The notes under the pieces were generated by a model. That model was not told the DNA's origin. It searched no databases and saw nothing but the letters and a program-made list of their open reading frames with translations. Source: an uncultured Alphaproteobacteria bacterium (GTDB lineage Bacteria; Pseudomonadota; Alphaproteobacteria; HIMB59; GCA-002718135). From it: a stretch of DNA of 64,000 bases. Below, piece after piece: positions 47,580-55,026 of this stretch (position 1 is the stretch's first letter; every line of letters begins with the position of its first letter). The stretch is taken from contig CABYHL010000001.1 of the NCBI GenBank assembly GCA_902518895.1, positions 81,038 through 145,037 of the forward strand, in the 5' to 3' direction. A program made the translations under genes and the position numbers.

Positions 47580-48236
47580 TTAAATTATTTTTCCATATGT
47601 TTTAAGCATCCATTCGTTTACTTTTGGATGCTTATACACTTCTTCTCTCAATTTATTTAATTTCTCATAGGGTTCTAATATGTTAGCTGGAACACCATCT
47701 AAAAGTCCTGAACTTAACCATCCAAGTAATCTCCAAATTGCTAAATCAGCAATAGAAATTTTGTTACCAACAAAGAAATTAGAATCTTTATTTTCTGAAA
47801 GTAAATTTTCAAGAAATTGAAACCATTTTGGTAAATGTTTTGTTGCTAATATTTTTCTCGCTAATTCTAATCGTTCCTTTTCTTTATCTCTACCAGAAAG
47901 AGTTACTAGATAGTTAATGTCTTGCGCCGCTTCAATAATTTGATCAATTTGTGCTGCTTCAAATTCATTATTTTTTGGATACAAACCAGATAACTTGCCA
48001 CAAAATCTTGCAATTGCTCCAGTTTGCGCAAATATTTTACCATCTACATCTAAAACTGGTAACTGCTTAAATGGTGCTATTAGCCCGTTGGGAAGTTTCC
48101 CATCTTTTTTTAGCTCTTCCGTATCTTGACTTTCAAAGCGATAATCTTTGAAAGGAATATCACCAATAAATAAGGCTAAACGCGCAACCTCAGCTCTCCA
48201 AAAAGGTATTTTAAAATAGTATAAGGTTATTTCCAT
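47580..48236 (-). CDS. Glutathione S-transferase, Sigma/Alpha-like (Tyr-type)
   Basis: ITLYYFKIPFWRAEVARLALFIG and FKQLPVLDVDGKIFAQTGAIARF closely parallel the sigma-class pattern YKLTYFNMRGRAE / FGKIPILEVDG..L.QS.AIARY. ATG 48236 preferred to TTG 48254. Confidence 0.75.
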   Translation of the reverse strand: MEITLYYFKIPFWRAEVARLALFIGDIPFKDYRFESQDTEELKKDGKLPNGLIAPFKQLPVLDVDGKIFAQTGAIARFCGKLSGLYPKNNEFEAAQIDQIIEAAQDINYLVTLSGRDKEKERLELARKILATKHLPKWFQFLENLLSENKDSNFFVGNKISIADLAIWRLLGWLSSGLLDGVPANILEPYEKLNKLREEVYKHPKVNEWMLKTYGKII

Positions 48237-48271
48237 ATTGATAAATTCATGCAATTATATGATACACACTT

Positions 48272-48723: not shown

Positions 48724-49893
48724 ATGAATTCAAAAATATTAAGTGAAAAAATTCAAAATATTTTTGAAAAATATAAAATTCCATCATTATCTGTTATTAT
48801 TACAAATAAAGATCAGAATTTATATGAAAACTATTTAGGTTTTAAAAACTCTAAAAATAAAACTCCTTTTGATGAATTATCAATTGTTAGAATTGCATCT
48901 ATGACGAAGCCTATTACATCGCTATGTATTTTCCAATTAATTGAGCAGAATTTAATTAGTTTAGAAACAAATTTACAAGACATTGATAAGCGATTTTCTG
49001 ATGTAAAAATCATCAAAAAAACAGATAACAAAATTAATTACATAAAACCTAAATCAAATATAAAAATTAAGCACTTATTAAATCATACCTCAGGTTATGG
49101 ATACCAGTTCTTAAATCCTGAAATTAAATACTTAGTTGATAATAAATTATTACAAGATTTAAAAGATGATGGTGCGGATTTTCTAGATGCTCCAATTTTA
49201 TTTGAACCGGGAGAAAGATGGAATTACGGTATTGGAATAGACATATTAGGTTATATAATTGAAAAAATTTCGAACAAAAAATTAAACGAATATATGAAAG
49301 AAAATTTATTCAATAAACTAGGTATGAATAACACCACTTTTCATTTAGATAATACAAAATTTAAAGATCTTGCATATGTATATAATTACACTCAAGATCA
49401 AATTAAAATTGATCAAGAAAGAGCTGATGAGCAAGAAAATAAAATTAATAAAACCTTTCATGCTGGTGGTGGAGGATTACTGTCAACAACTCAAGATTAT
49501 GCTAAATTTATGAGATTATTTCTAAAAGAACACAATGAAATTATTTCTCAAGAATCAATAAACTTGATGAAAAGAAATCAAATAGGATCACTAGAAGTTA
49601 AAAGAATGCCTTCAGTCGATGCTGAGTTATCCGCTTCCTTAGACTATGATGATAATATTGAAAAGAAATTTGGTTATGGTTTTATGATTAATAATCAAAA
49701 AACAAATGAAGGTCGTCCAAAAGGTAGTATATTTTGGACAGGAATTTTTAATAGTTTTTTTTGGATTGATTTTGAAAATAAAATTGGATGTGCAATATTC
49801 ATGCAAATGCTCCCTTACTTAAATGAGATTTCCCTCAAAACCTATAATGAAATAGAAACAGCTATTTATCAAAATATTGACACAAAAAAATAA
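48724..49893 (+). CDS. Serine hydrolase of the beta-lactamase/esterase (class C-like) family
   Basis: SMTKP (SxxK nucleophile motif), downstream YGYQ/YGIG region, HAGGG segment. Confidence 0.75.
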   Translation: MNSKILSEKIQNIFEKYKIPSLSVIITNKDQNLYENYLGFKNSKNKTPFDELSIVRIASMTKPITSLCIFQLIEQNLISLETNLQDIDKRFSDVKIIKKTDNKINYIKPKSNIKIKHLLNHTSGYGYQFLNPEIKYLVDNKLLQDLKDDGADFLDAPILFEPGERWNYGIGIDILGYIIEKISNKKLNEYMKENLFNKLGMNNTTFHLDNTKFKDLAYVYNYTQDQIKIDQERADEQENKINKTFHAGGGGLLSTTQDYAKFMRLFLKEHNEIISQESINLMKRNQIGSLEVKRMPSVDAELSASLDYDDNIEKKFGYGFMINNQKTNEGRPKGSIFWTGIFNSFFWIDFENKIGCAIFMQMLPYLNEISLKTYNEIETAIYQNIDTKK

Positions 49894-50280
49894 TTAACAT
49901 TTATCATTAATCATTTCTTGTTTTCTCATTGGCATAGAATCAATAACTTCAAAAAGTCTTAACAATATTTTATCATCAGAGCTAAAATCTTTAATTCCCC
50001 CATCATAACCTATTAACCAAATACCTTTTTTACTTTCAATAAATTTTGGAGTCTCAAATTTCTCGTTTAAAAATTTTTCAAAATAAATAATATCTAATTT
50101 TCTATCATTAATTTTACAATTATTACTTATTATGAATTTTTTAGTTTGTATGAGTAATTCATCCTCTTTATTTTCATAAGATACGATCAGTAGTCTTTTT
50201 TGCCAATTAAGTTCTGAGATTTTTTTTGCCATTATTTCAAAATTTGTTATGATTAATAATAATAAAATTATATATTTCAT
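49894..50280 (-). CDS. DUF4174 domain-containing secreted protein
   Basis: Signal-like N-terminus, WQKRLLIV and LIGYDGGIK ... IDSMPMRKQEM, matching the DUF4174 pattern. Confidence 0.6.
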   Translation of the reverse strand: MKYIILLLLIITNFEIMAKKISELNWQKRLLIVSYENKEDELLIQTKKFIISNNCKINDRKLDIIYFEKFLNEKFETPKFIESKKGIWLIGYDGGIKDFSSDDKILLRLFEVIDSMPMRKQEMINDKC

Positions 50281-50285
50281 TATAA

Positions 50286-50360
50286 TGGTGCCACAGGGCA
50301 GAATCGAACTGCCGGCTTACTCATTACCAATGAGTTACTCTACCCCTGAGTTACTGCGGC
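50286..50360 (-). tRNA. tRNA-Thr: tRNA-Thr (anticodon GGT), CCA encoded
   Basis: Reverse complement folds as a cloverleaf: acceptor GCCGCAG/CTGTGGC, D arm ACTC/GAGT, anticodon stem ACTCA/TGAGT with loop TTGGTAA, T arm GGCAG-TTCGATT-CTGCC, 3' ACCA. 75 nt. Confidence 0.92.
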
Positions 50361-50511: not shown

Positions 50512-51684
50512 ATGGATGATATGAAAGTTTACAATCGAGCTTTTATTTCAACTTGTATCGCCATTTCTATTCCTTTTTTTGTGTGGGGTAATACTATTTC
50601 GCATTTGCCTTGGATAGCTAGTAAAATTAATATGAGTCACTCAACTATTGGCTACTTTTTTATGATTTTTGCTATTATTAATTTATTAACATCTCAAGTT
50701 GTTGGAAGATACATTGCTCCAGTTATAGGTTCAAGAAATACACTAACCATAGGCGCGATAATATTTTCACCTTCACCATATTTCTTTGGTTTTTCAAATT
50801 CAGTACCATTTTTTTTACTATCTGCAATCCCATGTGGAATAGGAATTGGATTCCTGTGGTCAACTGCTACAGCCGTTACAAATCTAATAGAAGATAAGAC
50901 TAATAGAATTTTGCAAACTTATTTAAGCGCTTTTTTCAGTTTAGGTTTTCTATTTGGGGGTTTATGTTCTGGAATCATTCAAAGGTATCAATTTGATACG
51001 TATAATTTGTTTTCTCTCTTAATAATAATTGCGATTATTTCACCAATTTTTGTTTTTTATTTAGGTTTATCGAAAAGTAAGGATAATATCCAGAAAACTG
51101 AAAAATTTTCTATCCCTGAAAAAGATATTTTAATTTATGGATTATATCTATTCATTTTTTTTGGATCAATAGGTGCAATTTCTGATTGGTCTCCATTATG
51201 GTTTAAAAATGAACTGCTAACATCCAGCACTCTTGCAAGTTTAACAATAGTTGCATGGGGATCAGGTGAGACTATTGGTAAATTTCTTGGATCTTCTTTA
51301 ATAAAAAAAACTAATGAAAGAATAATTGGTGGTTATCTAAGTTTTTTTGGATGTTCAATTTATTTAATTATTGTATTTTTTGGTGATCCTTACTTAATTT
51401 TAATTGGGCTCTTTTTAATTGGTTTTTGTTCAGCAAATTTTGTTCCAGTCTTATTTAGACTTGGCCTTAAGAATACTAAAGAAAATGTTAACACTACTTC
51501 TGCTAACATATCTACAATAGGTTTCTTTGGTTTTTTAGTAGTTCCAGCTTTAATTGGCTACTCTGCTGAAATTAACAGCATTGGATTTAATGTAAAACTG
51601 ATAAGTGTAGTTTGGTTAGTTAATTTTATATTTTTTTTATACACTACAAGAGTTAATTTATCACAAGCGATTAAAAATACTTAG
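50512..51684 (+). CDS. MFS-type transporter
   Basis: About 12 hydrophobic spans and a motif-A-like VGRYIAPVIGSRN between the second and third spans. Confidence 0.65.
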   Translation: MDDMKVYNRAFISTCIAISIPFFVWGNTISHLPWIASKINMSHSTIGYFFMIFAIINLLTSQVVGRYIAPVIGSRNTLTIGAIIFSPSPYFFGFSNSVPFFLLSAIPCGIGIGFLWSTATAVTNLIEDKTNRILQTYLSAFFSLGFLFGGLCSGIIQRYQFDTYNLFSLLIIIAIISPIFVFYLGLSKSKDNIQKTEKFSIPEKDILIYGLYLFIFFGSIGAISDWSPLWFKNELLTSSTLASLTIVAWGSGETIGKFLGSSLIKKTNERIIGGYLSFFGCSIYLIIVFFGDPYLILIGLFLIGFCSANFVPVLFRLGLKNTKENVNTTSANISTIGFFGFLVVPALIGYSAEINSIGFNVKLISVVWLVNFIFFLYTTRVNLSQAIKNT

Positions 51685-51784: not shown

Positions 51785-52102
51785 TTAAATAATAGTTTCT
51801 GTTTTAGCTCCTGCAATTATTGAAGGTCCATCAATTACACCATGTTCTTTAGTAGTAAAGTTATCAAAGTTTTCATGAGTGGATAAAAATTCAAATATTG
51901 GACCATTTTTATATTTTTCCAGACTATCTTCATCTTTAAAAATATAAACACCTCCATAAACATTTTCATTTTCATCACCGATAAAGTACTTAGATATTAA
52001 ACCTTCTACTCCACGGAAATCCATAGCATCAATATGCGCTTGAGCCTTGAAATCATCAACACCCAAGTTTTTAAGATTAAAATTAATAATTAAAATTTTC
52101 AT
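51785..52102 (-). CDS. YdhR-like small ferredoxin-like-fold (dimeric alpha/beta barrel) protein
   Basis: ILIINFNLKNLGVDDFKAQ...GLISKYFIGDENENVYGGVYIFKDEDSLEKY parallels E. coli YdhR LLQLHFAFNGPFGD...[31 protein letters not shown]. ATG 52102 forms an ATGA overlap with the upstream stop. Confidence 0.6.
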   Translation of the reverse strand: MKILIINFNLKNLGVDDFKAQAHIDAMDFRGVEGLISKYFIGDENENVYGGVYIFKDEDSLEKYKNGPIFEFLSTHENFDNFTTKEHGVIDGPSIIAGAKTETII

Positions 52103-52716
52103 TCTTTCCATCCATTTTCAGCTAAAACTCTTCTAAGATTAAATCCATCCCAAATTGTTGAGCTTAGCATTTCCTGGTGATTGTCCCAAACTTTATCTCC
52201 ATTTAACTTATCTGATGCTTTTCCATAATCGGCCATGTTATTAAATCTAGCACCAAAGCCGTATTGACCAAAATCAGCACCGCTTAAAGTACCAACAGTG
52301 CATCCTGTTGATCCATTATCCATCCAATATTTAAAAAAAGCTTCTGATTCTTTTAAAACCAATTCTCTATTTGGATGAGAAAATTTCCAGATAGCAAAGC
52401 AGCTTTTAACACCATTGAATGTCATTTCATGCAATAAAGGTTCATAGAAATTCATTCTAACATGTTCACTCATTCCAAAATAAGCTTCCATCTCCGAACC
52501 AAATTCACTATCTGTACTCCAACTATCATCCATTTCACCAAAGTGTTGATAATTATTATATCCAATATCAATATTATATACTGATGTATCTGCACCTTGA
52601 TGTGTAGCTATTGAAGTTCCTATAGCGCCGTATTTTTCTGCATACTTTGAAACAATTTTGTAGCCTGACATTGCTCTGTCATTACTAATTTTATATTGCC
52701 AACTTCCTATAATCAT
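52099..52716 (-). CDS. Uncharacterised protein with internal two-fold repeat (paralogue A, 205 aa)
   Basis: The two halves share the pattern W.(Y/F)...G(A/S).G...GAD...(Y/F)NN(Y/M)..(F/Y)G...D. AAGGAGGT Shine-Dalgarno 4 nt before the ATG. Paralogous to 52731..53345. Confidence 0.6.
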   Translation of the reverse strand: MIIGSWQYKISNDRAMSGYKIVSKYAEKYGAIGTSIATHQGADTSVYNIDIGYNNYQHFGEMDDSWSTDSEFGSEMEAYFGMSEHVRMNFYEPLLHEMTFNGVKSCFAIWKFSHPNRELVLKESEAFFKYWMDNGSTGCTVGTLSGADFGQYGFGARFNNMADYGKASDKLNGDKVWDNHQEMLSSTIWDGFNLRRVLAENGWKE

Positions 52717-52730
52717 TTTTACCTCCTTTT

Positions 52731-53345
52731 TTAATAAATATTTCTTCTAATTACTCTGGCATTATAATTAAGATGAATATTTAAGTTTGCATAATAATCT
52801 TTGTGACTTGCCCAATAATCTGGAGAATTTTGGTTAGCATCCATGCACTTACCTAACTCTTGCATACTTTTAAATCTTGCAGCAAATAAATATTGATTAT
52901 TTCTATCACCAAACATTCTATGAATTGCAATTCCTGATGAACCATTTGACATGTAGTGTTTTTCATCAATTTCAAAACTTTTTTTTATAGCATCCACATC
53001 TGGATGACTAAAAACAAAATGTGCCCATACAGGCATTTCCTCAGTAGCACCTTTAATATTTCCAATCAATTCAGTTAAATAAACAGCTTCAACTAATTGA
53101 TTGTTTACAAAATTTGGTTGCATTTTTTGCCACCATTCTGGAGATGAAGCCCAAGCATCATCATTTTTTCCAAATGCTTCATAACTCTCAAATCCTGCTA
53201 CCATAGTGAATGTATTATCATCACCACCAATATTATGCGTTACATTAGTCATTCGAGCTCCACTTTCTTTAAACCAAGGTGAAACTTTATCAAAAATATC
53301 TACAGCATTTGCGTAGTCAGTTCTTATTTTCCAGGTTGCATACAT
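52731..53345 (-). CDS. Uncharacterised protein with internal two-fold repeat (paralogue B, 204 aa)
   Basis: Shares FSHP(D/N), NGS(S/T)G, ARF(K/N)(S/N)M and FG..DD(A/S)W with paralogue A. ATG 53345, preceded by AAGGAGGT, is preferred to the track's 53369. Confidence 0.6.
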   Translation of the reverse strand: MYATWKIRTDYANAVDIFDKVSPWFKESGARMTNVTHNIGGDDNTFTMVAGFESYEAFGKNDDAWASSPEWWQKMQPNFVNNQLVEAVYLTELIGNIKGATEEMPVWAHFVFSHPDVDAIKKSFEIDEKHYMSNGSSGIAIHRMFGDRNNQYLFAARFKSMQELGKCMDANQNSPDYWASHKDYYANLNIHLNYNARVIRRNIY

Positions 53346-53542
53346 ATTTACCTCCTTTGTTGATTGCAATAAGATGGTTATTATGAATTTATTACATAGA
53401 GATTAAAAATATTTTTATTTAATAATATTTTTAATGTATTTTTTTCCAAGAAAGTTCTAAAAAATAGAGAATTATTATGATTTTGTTATAAATTAAATTT
53501 AGAATGATTATAAAATAATATTTAATTTAAATTATATTTTAT

Positions 53543-54394
53543 ATGGATGTGAATAAAATTACACTAGGATACTGGAGTACAAAAGGACTTGGCTCTGCAT
53601 CAAGACAAATGATTATTTATGCCGGTGTTCCTCTAATAGCAAAAATTTATAAAGTACTTCCTAAAGAAGAAAATAATCAGATTATATATGAGGGAAGTTC
53701 ATGGCATGATAATGATAAAATTGATTTAAAGAAAAAAAATAGTTTAATTAATTTACCATACTTAAAATATTTTAAGGATGATAAAGAATTCATAATATCT
53801 CATTCCAATACCTGTCTAACTTTTTTGGGTAAAGAATTTGGTATGTTTGGTGAGACGCAAGAGGAAGAGATAGAGTGTGAGCAGTTACTGCAAGAAACTG
53901 TAGATTTAAGATCAATTGTAACAAGATTTGCTTACACTCATTTTAATTCTAAAGATGAAGAATTATTAGCAGCTAAAGAAGTTTACAATATAGCATTTGA
54001 AAATTCTAACTCTGGTAAACTTCAGAAATTCGAACACTGGCTCTCCTCAAAAGATAAAAGCAAAACTAAATTATTTTTAGTAGGTAATAAAATTTCTTCT
54101 CCAGACTTTAACCTTTTTGACACTTTAGATCTTTATTGTGAGTTTTTACTTTATTATAATTTTGTGGAAAATGCAGATAATAATAATGTTTTTGCTTTGC
54201 TGGAATATCCTCTGATTTCAGATTTTTTTAATAACTTTAAGCAACTTCCCAAAATGCAAAAATATTTTGAATCTGAATTATACAAACTTCCATTTACAAA
54301 TAAAGGAGCTAAATTTGGATCAGGTAAAAGTGGTATTACGTGGAACCCAAGTATTGATACTGATACAACACCGGATGAAATAATTGTTGAATAA
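53543..54394 (+). CDS. Glutathione S-transferase, Mu-class-like, enlarged (283 aa)
   Basis: TLGYWSTKGLGSASRQMIIY vs mammalian mu ILGYWDIRGLAHAIRLLLEY. INLPYL...FGETQEEEIECE vs FPNLPYL...CGETEEEKIRVD. FLVGNKISSPDFNLFDTLDL vs WFAGNKITFVDFLVYDVLDL. Confidence 0.7.
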   Translation: MDVNKITLGYWSTKGLGSASRQMIIYAGVPLIAKIYKVLPKEENNQIIYEGSSWHDNDKIDLKKKNSLINLPYLKYFKDDKEFIISHSNTCLTFLGKEFGMFGETQEEEIECEQLLQETVDLRSIVTRFAYTHFNSKDEELLAAKEVYNIAFENSNSGKLQKFEHWLSSKDKSKTKLFLVGNKISSPDFNLFDTLDLYCEFLLYYNFVENADNNNVFALLEYPLISDFFNNFKQLPKMQKYFESELYKLPFTNKGAKFGSGKSGITWNPSIDTDTTPDEIIVE

Positions 54395-54420
54395 ATATAT
54401 AATATTTATAAAGTAATTTT

Positions 54421-55026
54421 ATGGAAGAAGTAAATTTTTGGTTTTCAATAGGAAGTACTTATACTTATTTAACAGTCAATAGGTTGCATGAGGTCGCAGA
54501 AAAAGAAAACATTAAATTTAATTGGCATCCTTTTAGTGTAAGAAAAATTATGATGGATATGGACAACATTCCATTCACGCCACCAGCCAAAAAAATAAAA
54601 TCAGATTACATGTGGAGAGATATTGAAAGACGAGCAAAATTTTACGGTTTTGAAGCTAAGGTACCAGCACCATATCCATTAAAAGAATTTGATTTAGCAA
54701 ATCAAATTGCAATTCTTGGAATGAATGAAGGGTGGGGAGTTGATTATGTTTATAAAACATATCAAAGATGGTTTCAGCAAGGAAAAGAACCAGCTACACA
54801 GCCAAACTTAAACGAAATATTTAAAGAGCTAAACTTAGATCCAGAAGAAACTATAAAGAAAGCTAATGAGAAGGAAATAAAGGATAAATATCTAAGCAAT
54901 ACTGAATATGCCTACAAAAAAGGAGTTTTTGGGAGTCCTTCCTTTATATATCAAGGTAAGGAAGTATTTTGGGGAGATGATAGACTTGAAGATTGTATTA
55001 AATGGATTAGGTTACAAGGTAAGTAA
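54421..55026 (+). CDS. DsbA-like 2-hydroxychromene-2-carboxylate isomerase family protein (GST kappa homologue)
   Basis: VNFWFSIGSTYTYL N-terminus and C-terminal GVFGSPSFIYQGKEVFWGDDRLE, typical of the HCCA isomerase/kappa-GST family. Confidence 0.72.
   Translation: MEEVNFWFSIGSTYTYLTVNRLHEVAEKENIKFNWHPFSVRKIMMDMDNIPFTPPAKKIKSDYMWRDIERRAKFYGFEAKVPAPYPLKEFDLANQIAILGMNEGWGVDYVYKTYQRWFQQGKEPATQPNLNEIFKELNLDPEETIKKANEKEIKDKYLSNTEYAYKKGVFGSPSFIYQGKEVFWGDDRLEDCIKWIRLQGK

Follow-up and report, generated by a model that had tools for sequence, protein, structure and literature searches.

The window analysed here is a 64,000-nucleotide stretch of contig CABYHL010000001.1 (assembly GCA_902518895.1, positions 81,038 to 145,037), from an uncultured Alphaproteobacteria bacterium, and the gene in question is an open reading frame (ORF) located at 53543..54394 on the + strand, which starts with ATG and codes for a 283-aa, mu-related cytosolic glutathione S-transferase (GST) of the Tyr type. 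It is followed, after an AT-rich spacer of 26 nt (54395..54420, + strand), by a second gene at 54421..55026, on the same strand, whose 201-aa product has the DsbA fold and resembles 2-hydroxychromene-2-carboxylate (HCCA) isomerases and kappa-class GSTs; the ORF positions, the length of the GST and the gap to the next gene are all as given in the original prediction, which was made from the sequence alone. Upstream, 173 nt of AT-rich DNA (53370..53542), comprised between the GST and a divergent DUF6854-like gene on the - strand, are presumed to hold the GST promoter; a promoter scan of the DNA upstream of the GST returned weak consensus matches only, at a frequency no better than that of shuffled sequence. 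Taken together, the analyses described below make it probable that this gene encodes a functional GST of a mu-related protist family, that it was acquired from a protist in ancient times and that it is now an optional island gene of SAR11.

The product had been proposed to resemble mu-class GSTs; indeed, all four peptide blocks quoted in support are found in the ORF, and it aligns with mu GSTs along the full length. In a phmmer search of the PDB, the best match is Tetranychus TuGSTm (8uda, 4.5e-13); human GSTM3 (3gtu_B) matches at 7.7e-13, and the other top matches include mouse mu7 and the 26-kDa GSTs of Fasciola and Schistosoma. The mu matches are full length, residues 6-261 of the query aligning with residues 5-223 of the GSTM3 chain; pi-class matches are weaker than those to mu and cover the C-terminal two thirds only. 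Pfam identifies GST_C_3 (1e-8) and GST_C (3e-5), so that only models of the C-terminal domain match and GST_N does not, and NCBIfam gave no matches to the GST, to the DsbA-like protein or to either of the DUF6854-like proteins encoded upstream. The several insertions and the C-terminal tail that had been noticed are also evident in the alignment: the protein is 65 residues longer than the 218-aa mu GSTs, and it has an extended mu loop, two additional residues before the NLPY motif, additional stretches in the alpha4-alpha5 region and ahead of alpha7, and 22 extra residues at the C-terminus; a C-terminal extension is carried by its protist relatives as well.

An AlphaFold2 (AF2) model of the GST, built from an alignment of 51 sequences, has a predicted local distance difference test score (pLDDT) of 93.4 and a predicted template modelling score (pTM) of 0.92. 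It consists of a complete, thioredoxin-like N-domain, with the beta-alpha-beta...beta-beta-alpha order, and of an all-helical C-domain; these domains, together with the GST_C signature, are those of the cytosolic GST superfamily fold. When the model was compared with the PDB by Foldseek, ranks 1 to 41 were all occupied by mu-class structures (E-values from 2.6e-12 to 2e-9), with pi enzymes appearing from rank 42; the mu-class template modelling (TM) scores, normalised to the target, are mostly 0.8-0.87, and identity in these alignments is 17-26%. The mu loop, at residues ~37-54 (KVLPKEENNQIIYEGSSW), aligns with mu MGDAPDYDRSQW, but it is longer; it contains the Y-D/E-x-S-x-W segment, and a beta-hairpin is predicted within it at residues 39-50. 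The nearest structures are thus of the mu class, and both the mu loop and the equivalent of Tyr115 in the H-site are kept; the resemblance, which far exceeds chance in sequence, recurs at the level of structure.

The alignment allows the residues of the active site to be assigned, with the mu enzymes numbered as in rat and human GSTM1. The catalytic Tyr6, in the GYW motif, corresponds to Tyr10 of the window protein, Trp7 to Trp11, Leu12 to Leu16, Trp45 to Trp54, Lys49 to Lys59, and Asn58-Leu59-cisPro60 to Asn70-Leu71-Pro72, in the NLP(cis-Pro)Y motif at 70-73; Gln71 is replaced by His87, Ser72 corresponds to Ser88, Asp105 to Asp121, and Tyr115 of the H-site to Tyr131. The mu G-site and H-site residues are kept in the window protein, in 15 bacterial and in ~60 protist sequences. 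Tyr10-Trp11, within LGYWSTKGL, is invariant in 43 SAR11 alleles and in 15 of 15 bacterial members of the family, and Tyr131 in every aligned family member; in the H-site, Met104, Met108 and Ile111 are replaced by residues of smaller size or higher polarity (Val, Ser, Thr). Position 87, the equivalent of the glutathione-binding Gln71, is polymorphic: of the 43 alleles, 28 encode His and 15 encode Gln at codon 87 (53801..53803), and Gln is present at this position in 14 of the 15 bacterial members, including all those that are not of the window type, and in the protist members aligned. This His/Gln exchange may tune glutathione binding or specificity.

By analogy with the mu G-site, Tyr10 would form a hydrogen bond with the thiol of glutathione and so activate it, the tripeptide being held by Trp11, Trp54, Lys59, Asn70-Leu71-cisPro72, His/Gln87-Ser88 and Asp121; the thiolate would then attack an electrophile sitting in an H-site that includes Tyr131. 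Tyr115 of the mu enzymes assists epoxide and Michael-acceptor chemistry. As regards the substrates, small electrophiles of the plankton, such as unsaturated aldehydes, oxylipins, acrylate-type Michael acceptors, quinones and epoxides, may be named as speculative candidates. The gene is under purifying selection, with a median dN/dS of 0.12-0.15 over the 43 alleles, and this, together with the invariance of the G-site residues, indicates a working, Tyr-activated transferase; from its sequence, the ORF almost certainly codes for a functional, soluble enzyme of the alpha/mu/pi/sigma supergroup. Alternatively, the GST fold might serve a purpose other than catalysis, the protein acting as a ligandin, as a regulator or as an SspA-type stress protein; this would be in keeping with the large insertions and the C-terminal extension, as compared with characterised mu enzymes, and with the exclusive match of the window protein to GST_C models. 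Such a role is nonetheless very unlikely, as the glutathione-contacting residues, the cis-Pro and the catalytic Tyr among them, are invariant over the 43 alleles, position 87 excepted, and nearly so in the whole family, while 29 of 51 scanned family members give a GST_N match and the N-domain of the model is complete.

The family to which this enzyme belongs was delineated by an exhaustive HMMER search over 1.84 billion cluster representatives; an initial large protein search had returned near-identical SAR11 variants only, and the distant relatives emerged from the representative and profile searches. In total, 611 relatives were found among the cluster representatives, 256 of them below 1e-10, and more than 150 representative clusters are nearer to the window GST than any metazoan mu GST. 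The family consensus reads GYWxIRGLGAPLRMM, Y..DxSxW, NPLINLPY, TQSNA, CEQLLCE.MDLRN, APDFHLxEMLDQ and LPxNNKxAxFG. Relatives occur in Pelagibacteraceae genomes as well as in marine eukaryotes, and those of 230-340 aa are eukaryotic wherever their origin is established: named members include transcripts of MMETSP and EukProt, Ochromonadaceae sp. CCMP2298, Hemiselmis tepida and Fragilaria crotonensis, while three contigs (L045-L047) are eukaryotic by context, having WD40, HEAT/PP2A, mitochondrial-carrier and sideroflexin genes, and two more (L108, L109) show sparse genes and tandem GSTs. The verified eukaryotic members thus span stramenopiles, cryptophytes and picoeukaryote genomes; many protist members have N-terminal, targeting-like extensions, which are found in none of the bacterial ones. 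In public annotations, the gene is labelled as ‘hypothetical protein’ or ‘glutathione S-transferase family protein’.

The labelled bacterial members come from two lineages only. The first group, from SAR11, comprises the window type and a paralogue type of 284 aa, which are 52-56% identical; the second consists of proteins of 282-295 aa, encoded on contigs with 40-42% GC that carry the NCBI labels ‘SAR324 cluster bacterium’ or ‘Deltaproteobacteria bacterium’. In the alignment, the bacterial members share indels that are without counterpart in the protist members. One contig (L044; GCA_902559255.1, 1381..5486, GC 0.27) contains the 284-aa, SAR11-type paralogue near lpxD-fabZ-lpxA and beside three genes of polysaccharide- or alginate-lyase families and a DUF1330 gene, a neighbourhood unexpected in a low-GC, Pelagibacteraceae-like genome; in another (L043), a SAR324-type copy is flanked by a DUF1330 gene and an ABC exporter. 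No relative of the GST family was found on viral contigs, so that nothing points to a viral vector.

Two neighbour-joining (NJ) trees were built, one on Kimura distances with 85 sequences and 100 bootstraps, the other on BLOSUM62 score distances with 100 replicates and with beta and theta GSTs as outgroups. All 15 bacterial sequences are monophyletic, with a bootstrap of 94 in the Kimura tree and in 100 of 100 replicates of the score-distance tree. In the Kimura tree they divide into two subclades (bootstrap 100 each) and fall within a 55-member clade, otherwise made of protist sequences (74); the whole family is sister to the metazoan mu enzymes plus a small protist ‘mu-proper’ group (65), with pi outside of this assemblage, followed by alpha and sigma, and the split between the supergroup and theta has a bootstrap of 93. 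In 95 of 100 replicates of the score-distance tree, at least five protist-only lineages have to be passed on the way from the bacterial clade to the nearest node with a reference sequence, and in 93 of 100 the reference group at that node includes mu. Across the GST classes, these distance trees place the window GST in a protist-dominated radiation that is sister to metazoan mu.

A single bacterial clade nested among protist sequences favours an old transfer from eukaryotes to bacteria. The sequences are most economically explained by a single old protist-to-bacteria transfer, whose direction we infer, with subsequent spread between SAR11 and SAR324: the ancestor of the bacterial clade would have taken the gene from a protist, and the clade would then have gained its own insertions, to be found now in two unrelated lineages, Pelagibacteraceae (SAR11) and SAR324-labelled metagenome-assembled genomes. 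In the SAR11 lineage of the window, the gene would have become an optional, rightmost component of a small variable island. Of the two options originally left open, ancient transfer or an unrecognised bacterial lineage of the class, the former is therefore favoured, with the donor on the marine-protist side, and the latter less so.

The second option implies that an old bacterial lineage of Tyr-type GSTs, originating in marine bacteria or going back to the alphaproteobacterial ancestry of eukaryotes, passed the gene from bacteria to eukaryotes. It gains some weight from a second GST of the window, at 47580..48254 on the - strand (likely start Met7, at 48236), 5.3 kb from the mu-like one. This is a sigma-like, Tyr-type enzyme: its top PDB matches (2e-19 to 1e-12) are with sigma GSTs and with haematopoietic prostaglandin-D synthases, alpha enzymes coming next, and Pfam finds both GST_N and GST_C_3 (1e-17). 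Pelagibacteraceae carry it very frequently and in conserved form (2,273 clusters at E<=1e-5, of which one has 1,169 members), so that Tyr-type GSTs are not foreign to the lineage. The original prediction had started from mu as a eukaryotic class; the mu-like gene turns out not to be the sole ‘animal-type’ GST here, as the sigma-like one lies nearby. The two were also considered as recent paralogues, an idea rejected in view of their 23% identity. The depth of the bacterial clade, with subclades about 40% identical and two paralogue loci in SAR11, and the weakly supported deep nodes of the trees also agree with a bacterial origin. Against it stand the nesting of the bacteria below the protist-only branches in the tree rooted with beta and theta, the position of metazoan mu and protist mu-proper sequences as the nearest outgroup of the family, and the breadth of the eukaryotic members as compared with just two labelled bacterial lineages; moreover, long-branch artefacts would be expected to pull the bacteria toward the outgroup and not into the protists. 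A bacterial origin is accordingly regarded as unlikely, and acquisition from a protist is retained as the preferred explanation.

Several points weigh against this interpretation. The trees are distance-based only; the reference sequences of the mu, pi, alpha, sigma, theta and beta classes were either entered by hand or taken over from the PDB search alignments; and the deep nodes are weak, with a bootstrap of 65 for family plus mu and of 64 for the bacteria as sister to the sequence P0142, in the Kimura tree. Part of the ‘protist’ set is of verified eukaryotic origin, the rest being unlabelled metagenome proteins. Since the conserved sigma-like gene indicates that Tyr-type GSTs are not strictly eukaryotic, the argument on direction from their rarity in bacteria is weakened. 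As for the function, the window allele has His in place of Gln71 and Gly in place of mu Arg42. Alpha, mu and pi enzymes have in common a Phe56 lock-and-key at the dimer interface; the corresponding column holds Asn in 13 of the 15 bacterial and in 50 of the 60 protist members, although the equivalence of this column is uncertain because of a two-residue insertion (NSLINLPY vs DFPNLPY), and dimerisation may therefore differ from that of mu. Finally, GST classes are by convention defined by at least 40% identity to their members (PMC10950700), which the window protein, 25-30% identical to mu GSTs, does not reach.

Identities computed over trimmed alignment columns amount to 30% with human GSTM1 and 27% with S. 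japonicum GST26, as compared with 27% for GSTP1, 20% for GSTA1 and 16-18% for sigma, beta and theta enzymes; with the protist members they are 37-41%. In the distance trees, the mu references form a clade of their own (bootstrap 83-84), and the window GST is outside of this metazoan mu clade. As neither identity nor clade places it in mu, it is best described as part of a bacterial subclade of the protist mu-related family: judged from sequence and model, a mu-like function is predicted for it and its structure is nearest to mu, yet it is not mu sensu stricto. It does not belong to a known bacterial class either, since no similarity to beta or theta enzymes and no NCBIfam match were found: phmmer detected none between the window GST and the E. 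coli beta-class Gst, even with --max, their identity being 17% and the catalytic position being occupied by Tyr and not by Cys10, and none with theta GSTT1, the identities to these two enzymes being 17-18% in the alignment.

The distribution of the gene was scanned in one genome per GTDB species with a single protein query, whose reach is relatives with at least 66% identity. The GST was found in 41 loci, with 66-99% identity, on contigs of up to 884 kb from single-cell or metagenome-assembled genomes labelled as uncultured Alphaproteobacteria or Pelagibacteraceae; the DsbA-like gene directly follows it in all 41, and an ABC-F ATPase and an HpcH-family aldolase come next wherever the contig extends so far. 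The 43 SAR11 alleles fall into three groups, at 95-100%, 75-81% and 67-70% identity. The GC content of the gene is 0.286, as compared with 0.298 for the window, and its GC at third codon positions (GC3) is 0.19, as compared with 0.17-0.23 for the neighbours. The eukaryotic nature of the nearest characterised relatives could raise the suspicion of a contaminant or of an assembly chimera with eukaryotic DNA; however, the same bacterial neighbours recur in the 41 independent genomes and in several metagenome contigs, GC and GC3 equal those of the host, introns are lacking and the gene spacing is bacterial. The constant context and the host-like composition exclude contamination or chimerism for practical purposes, and the view that the gene is native, already expressed in the original prediction, is borne out: the contig is not chimeric at this point, as the same gene occurs in the same context in 41 species-level genomes.

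Metagenome contigs were also queried with the DsbA-like protein, yielding 59 loci, of which 43 have at least 900 bp upstream. At these 43 loci the GST is adjacent in eight, separated by an MFS gene in one (L056) and absent in 34; the latter include two (L051, L053) whose DsbA-like gene is 93-94% identical to that of the window. The GST is thus the rightmost, optional cargo of a small variable hotspot, of which the DsbA-like gene is the right border. The left anchor is a conserved tRNA-Thr(GGT), located at 50286..50360 on the - strand and identified by ARAGORN and Rfam, which marks the left edge at 40 of the 42 loci that were scanned. At empty sites (L058, L066, L072-L074), the tRNA-Thr directly precedes the DsbA-like gene, with a segment of 80-133 bp between them; the segment contains the GST alone in L004 and L009 (~1 kb), measures 4,060 bp in the window, and reaches ~6.5 kb, with larger cargo, in L003, L033 and L035.

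Besides the GST, the cargo of the window includes an MFS transporter (50512..51684, +; Pfam MFS_1 6e-30), whose presence and identity vary among loci, a small YdhR-family protein with a putative mono-oxygenase fold (51785..52111, -; Pfam ydhR 6e-12), present in some loci only, and two DUF6854-like proteins, B (52099..52716, -; weak DUF6854 match) and A (52731..53369, -; Pfam DUF6854 1.6e-6 and a weak NIPSNAP match), the latter variable among loci and divergent to the GST. The two are tandem paralogues of ~205-212 aa (BLASTP 27% identity, 5e-23), replaced in other genomes by variants 25-52% identical at the same position (45-52% in the case of B); the gene for B overlaps the YdhR-like gene by 13 nt. 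The gene content to the left of the GST changes among loci, the cargo being modular, and the GST itself diverges between genomes (66-99% identity) more than the DsbA-like gene (90-99%) and the ABC-F gene (95-98%). No integrase was found among the ORFs of the island and no att-like repeats at its junctions, where repeat search and junction alignment gave AT-rich, low-complexity matches only; in addition, it is the 5′ end of the tRNA-Thr, and not its 3′ end, that the island adjoins. For these reasons, it is not a classical tRNA integrative element.

On the left flank, immediately beside the tRNA-Thr, lies a gene for a DUF4174 protein (49894..50280, -) with a signal-peptide-like N-terminus, which accompanies the tRNA-Thr in most loci at just 54-67% identity. 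A gene of the beta-lactamase family (serine hydrolase; 48724..49893, +) abuts it convergently, with no spacer.

The gene on the other side of the GST had been predicted to code for a DsbA-like member of the HCCA-isomerase family, and this is what was found: the protein matches Pfam DSBA (2.2e-29, residues 4-191), and its only sequence matches in the PDB are two HCCA isomerases, 3fz5 (5.8e-15) and 2imd (5.9e-12), both full length. Its motif FWFSIGSTYTYL aligns with FWFDFSSGYAFF of 3fz5 and has Ser-Thr-Tyr-Thr in the place of CxxC, with no Cys; the Ser is presumably the catalytic residue, by comparison with Ser16 of GSTK1. The gene is a conserved anchor of the island and not cargo. Kappa GSTs and NahD-type HCCA isomerases are glutathione-using enzymes, and the GST and the HCCA-isomerase-like protein could accordingly be envisaged as a dedicated two-enzyme pathway, encoded by an operon and acting with glutathione on one aromatic or quinone substrate. 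Their common strand, the short gap, the lack of a terminator and the adjacency in all 41 GST-carrying genomes would fit such an arrangement; indeed, no terminator-like hairpin (0 sites) was detected by a scan of the 26-nt spacer, and read-through or co-transcription is possible when both genes are present. The pathway is, however, improbable: the DsbA-like gene occurs without the GST in 34 of the 43 related metagenome contigs, empty sites and the two near-identical cases included, an MFS gene can intervene between the two, the divergence of the two genes is unequal, and no DsbA-like gene accompanies the paralogous SAR11 copy or the SAR324-type copies of the GST. The prevalence of GST-less contigs rather shows that the adjacency is a by-product of the position of the GST in the island, and not a conserved functional pair.

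SAR11 is the most abundant heterotroph of the surface ocean. The presence in these dominant bacteria of a eukaryote-type enzyme lineage, polymorphic for presence and absence, is well supported and apparently unreported. In reviews, Alpha, Mu, Pi and Sigma are animal-type classes, and Beta and Chi are bacterial (PMC10950700); the animal-type classes were more recently extended to some protists, with bacteria being credited with beta, chi, theta, zeta and similar classes (PMC10950700, PMC11925944), and ‘Mu class’ GSTs have been annotated in ciliates (PMC11925944). In the full-text literature, no report was found of mu-related GSTs in bacteria, of this SAR11 gene or of relevant algal mu-class GSTs; the GST mentioned by Wilhelm et al. 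2007 (PMC2217521) is at a different locus, near proteorhodopsin.

It may be tentatively proposed, as a possibility well short of an even chance, that transfer from protists provided SAR11 and SAR324, two unrelated lineages that count among the most abundant bacterioplankton of the ocean, with a polymorphic, accessory GST for the detoxification of phytoplankton electrophiles which the donors also have to handle, such as oxylipins, polyunsaturated aldehydes, acrylate-type Michael acceptors and quinones. If true, and considered together with the sigma-like GST, Tyr-type ‘animal’ GSTs would be regular components of oligotrophic marine bacteria and the evolution of GST classes would have to be redrawn. 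The gene is also a clean, testable example of probable gene flow from eukaryotes into a streamlined bacterial genome and, since it is polymorphic within populations, a candidate marker of the chemical interaction between bacterioplankton and phytoplankton. The enzyme, small and soluble, offers an experimentally tractable entry to a large, uncharacterised family of protist GSTs; the conceptual step is a moderate one, as the superfamily is very well known.

Among the known systems, NahD-type HCCA isomerases and kappa GSTs are the counterparts of the DsbA-like neighbour, which shares with them the fold, full-length matches and a Ser in place of the CxxC cysteines; unlike NahD, it is found outside any naphthalene or other aromatic-catabolic operon, as a conserved SAR11 gene between the ABC-F ATPase and the tRNA-Thr. 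The GST itself belongs to the same superfamily as the bacterial classes (beta, chi, theta, zeta and others), with the thioredoxin-like N-domain and the helical C-domain, but these use a catalytic Cys or Ser where the window GST has Tyr. The metazoan mu GSTs (human GSTM1-M5, rat GSTM1, the 26-kDa enzymes of Schistosoma and Fasciola, and TuGSTm) are closer: they have the same fold, the Tyr of the N-terminal GYW, the mu loop between beta2 and alpha2, the C-terminal (N)K(M/G)AxFG motif, the same G-site residues (Trp, Trp, Lys, Asn-Leu-cisPro, Ser, Asp) and the equivalent of Tyr115; from these enzymes the window GST differs by its 25-30% identity, its 65 additional residues, Asn at the column tentatively aligned with Phe56, His87 in place of Gln71 and Gly in place of Arg42. 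The true family of the window protein is represented by the mu-like GSTs of marine protists, with which it shares 31-42% identity, the consensus and the C-terminal extension; in comparison with them, the bacterial clade adds a longer mu loop and insertions after NLPY and before the last helices, and its members read STKGLG where those of protists read IRGLG.

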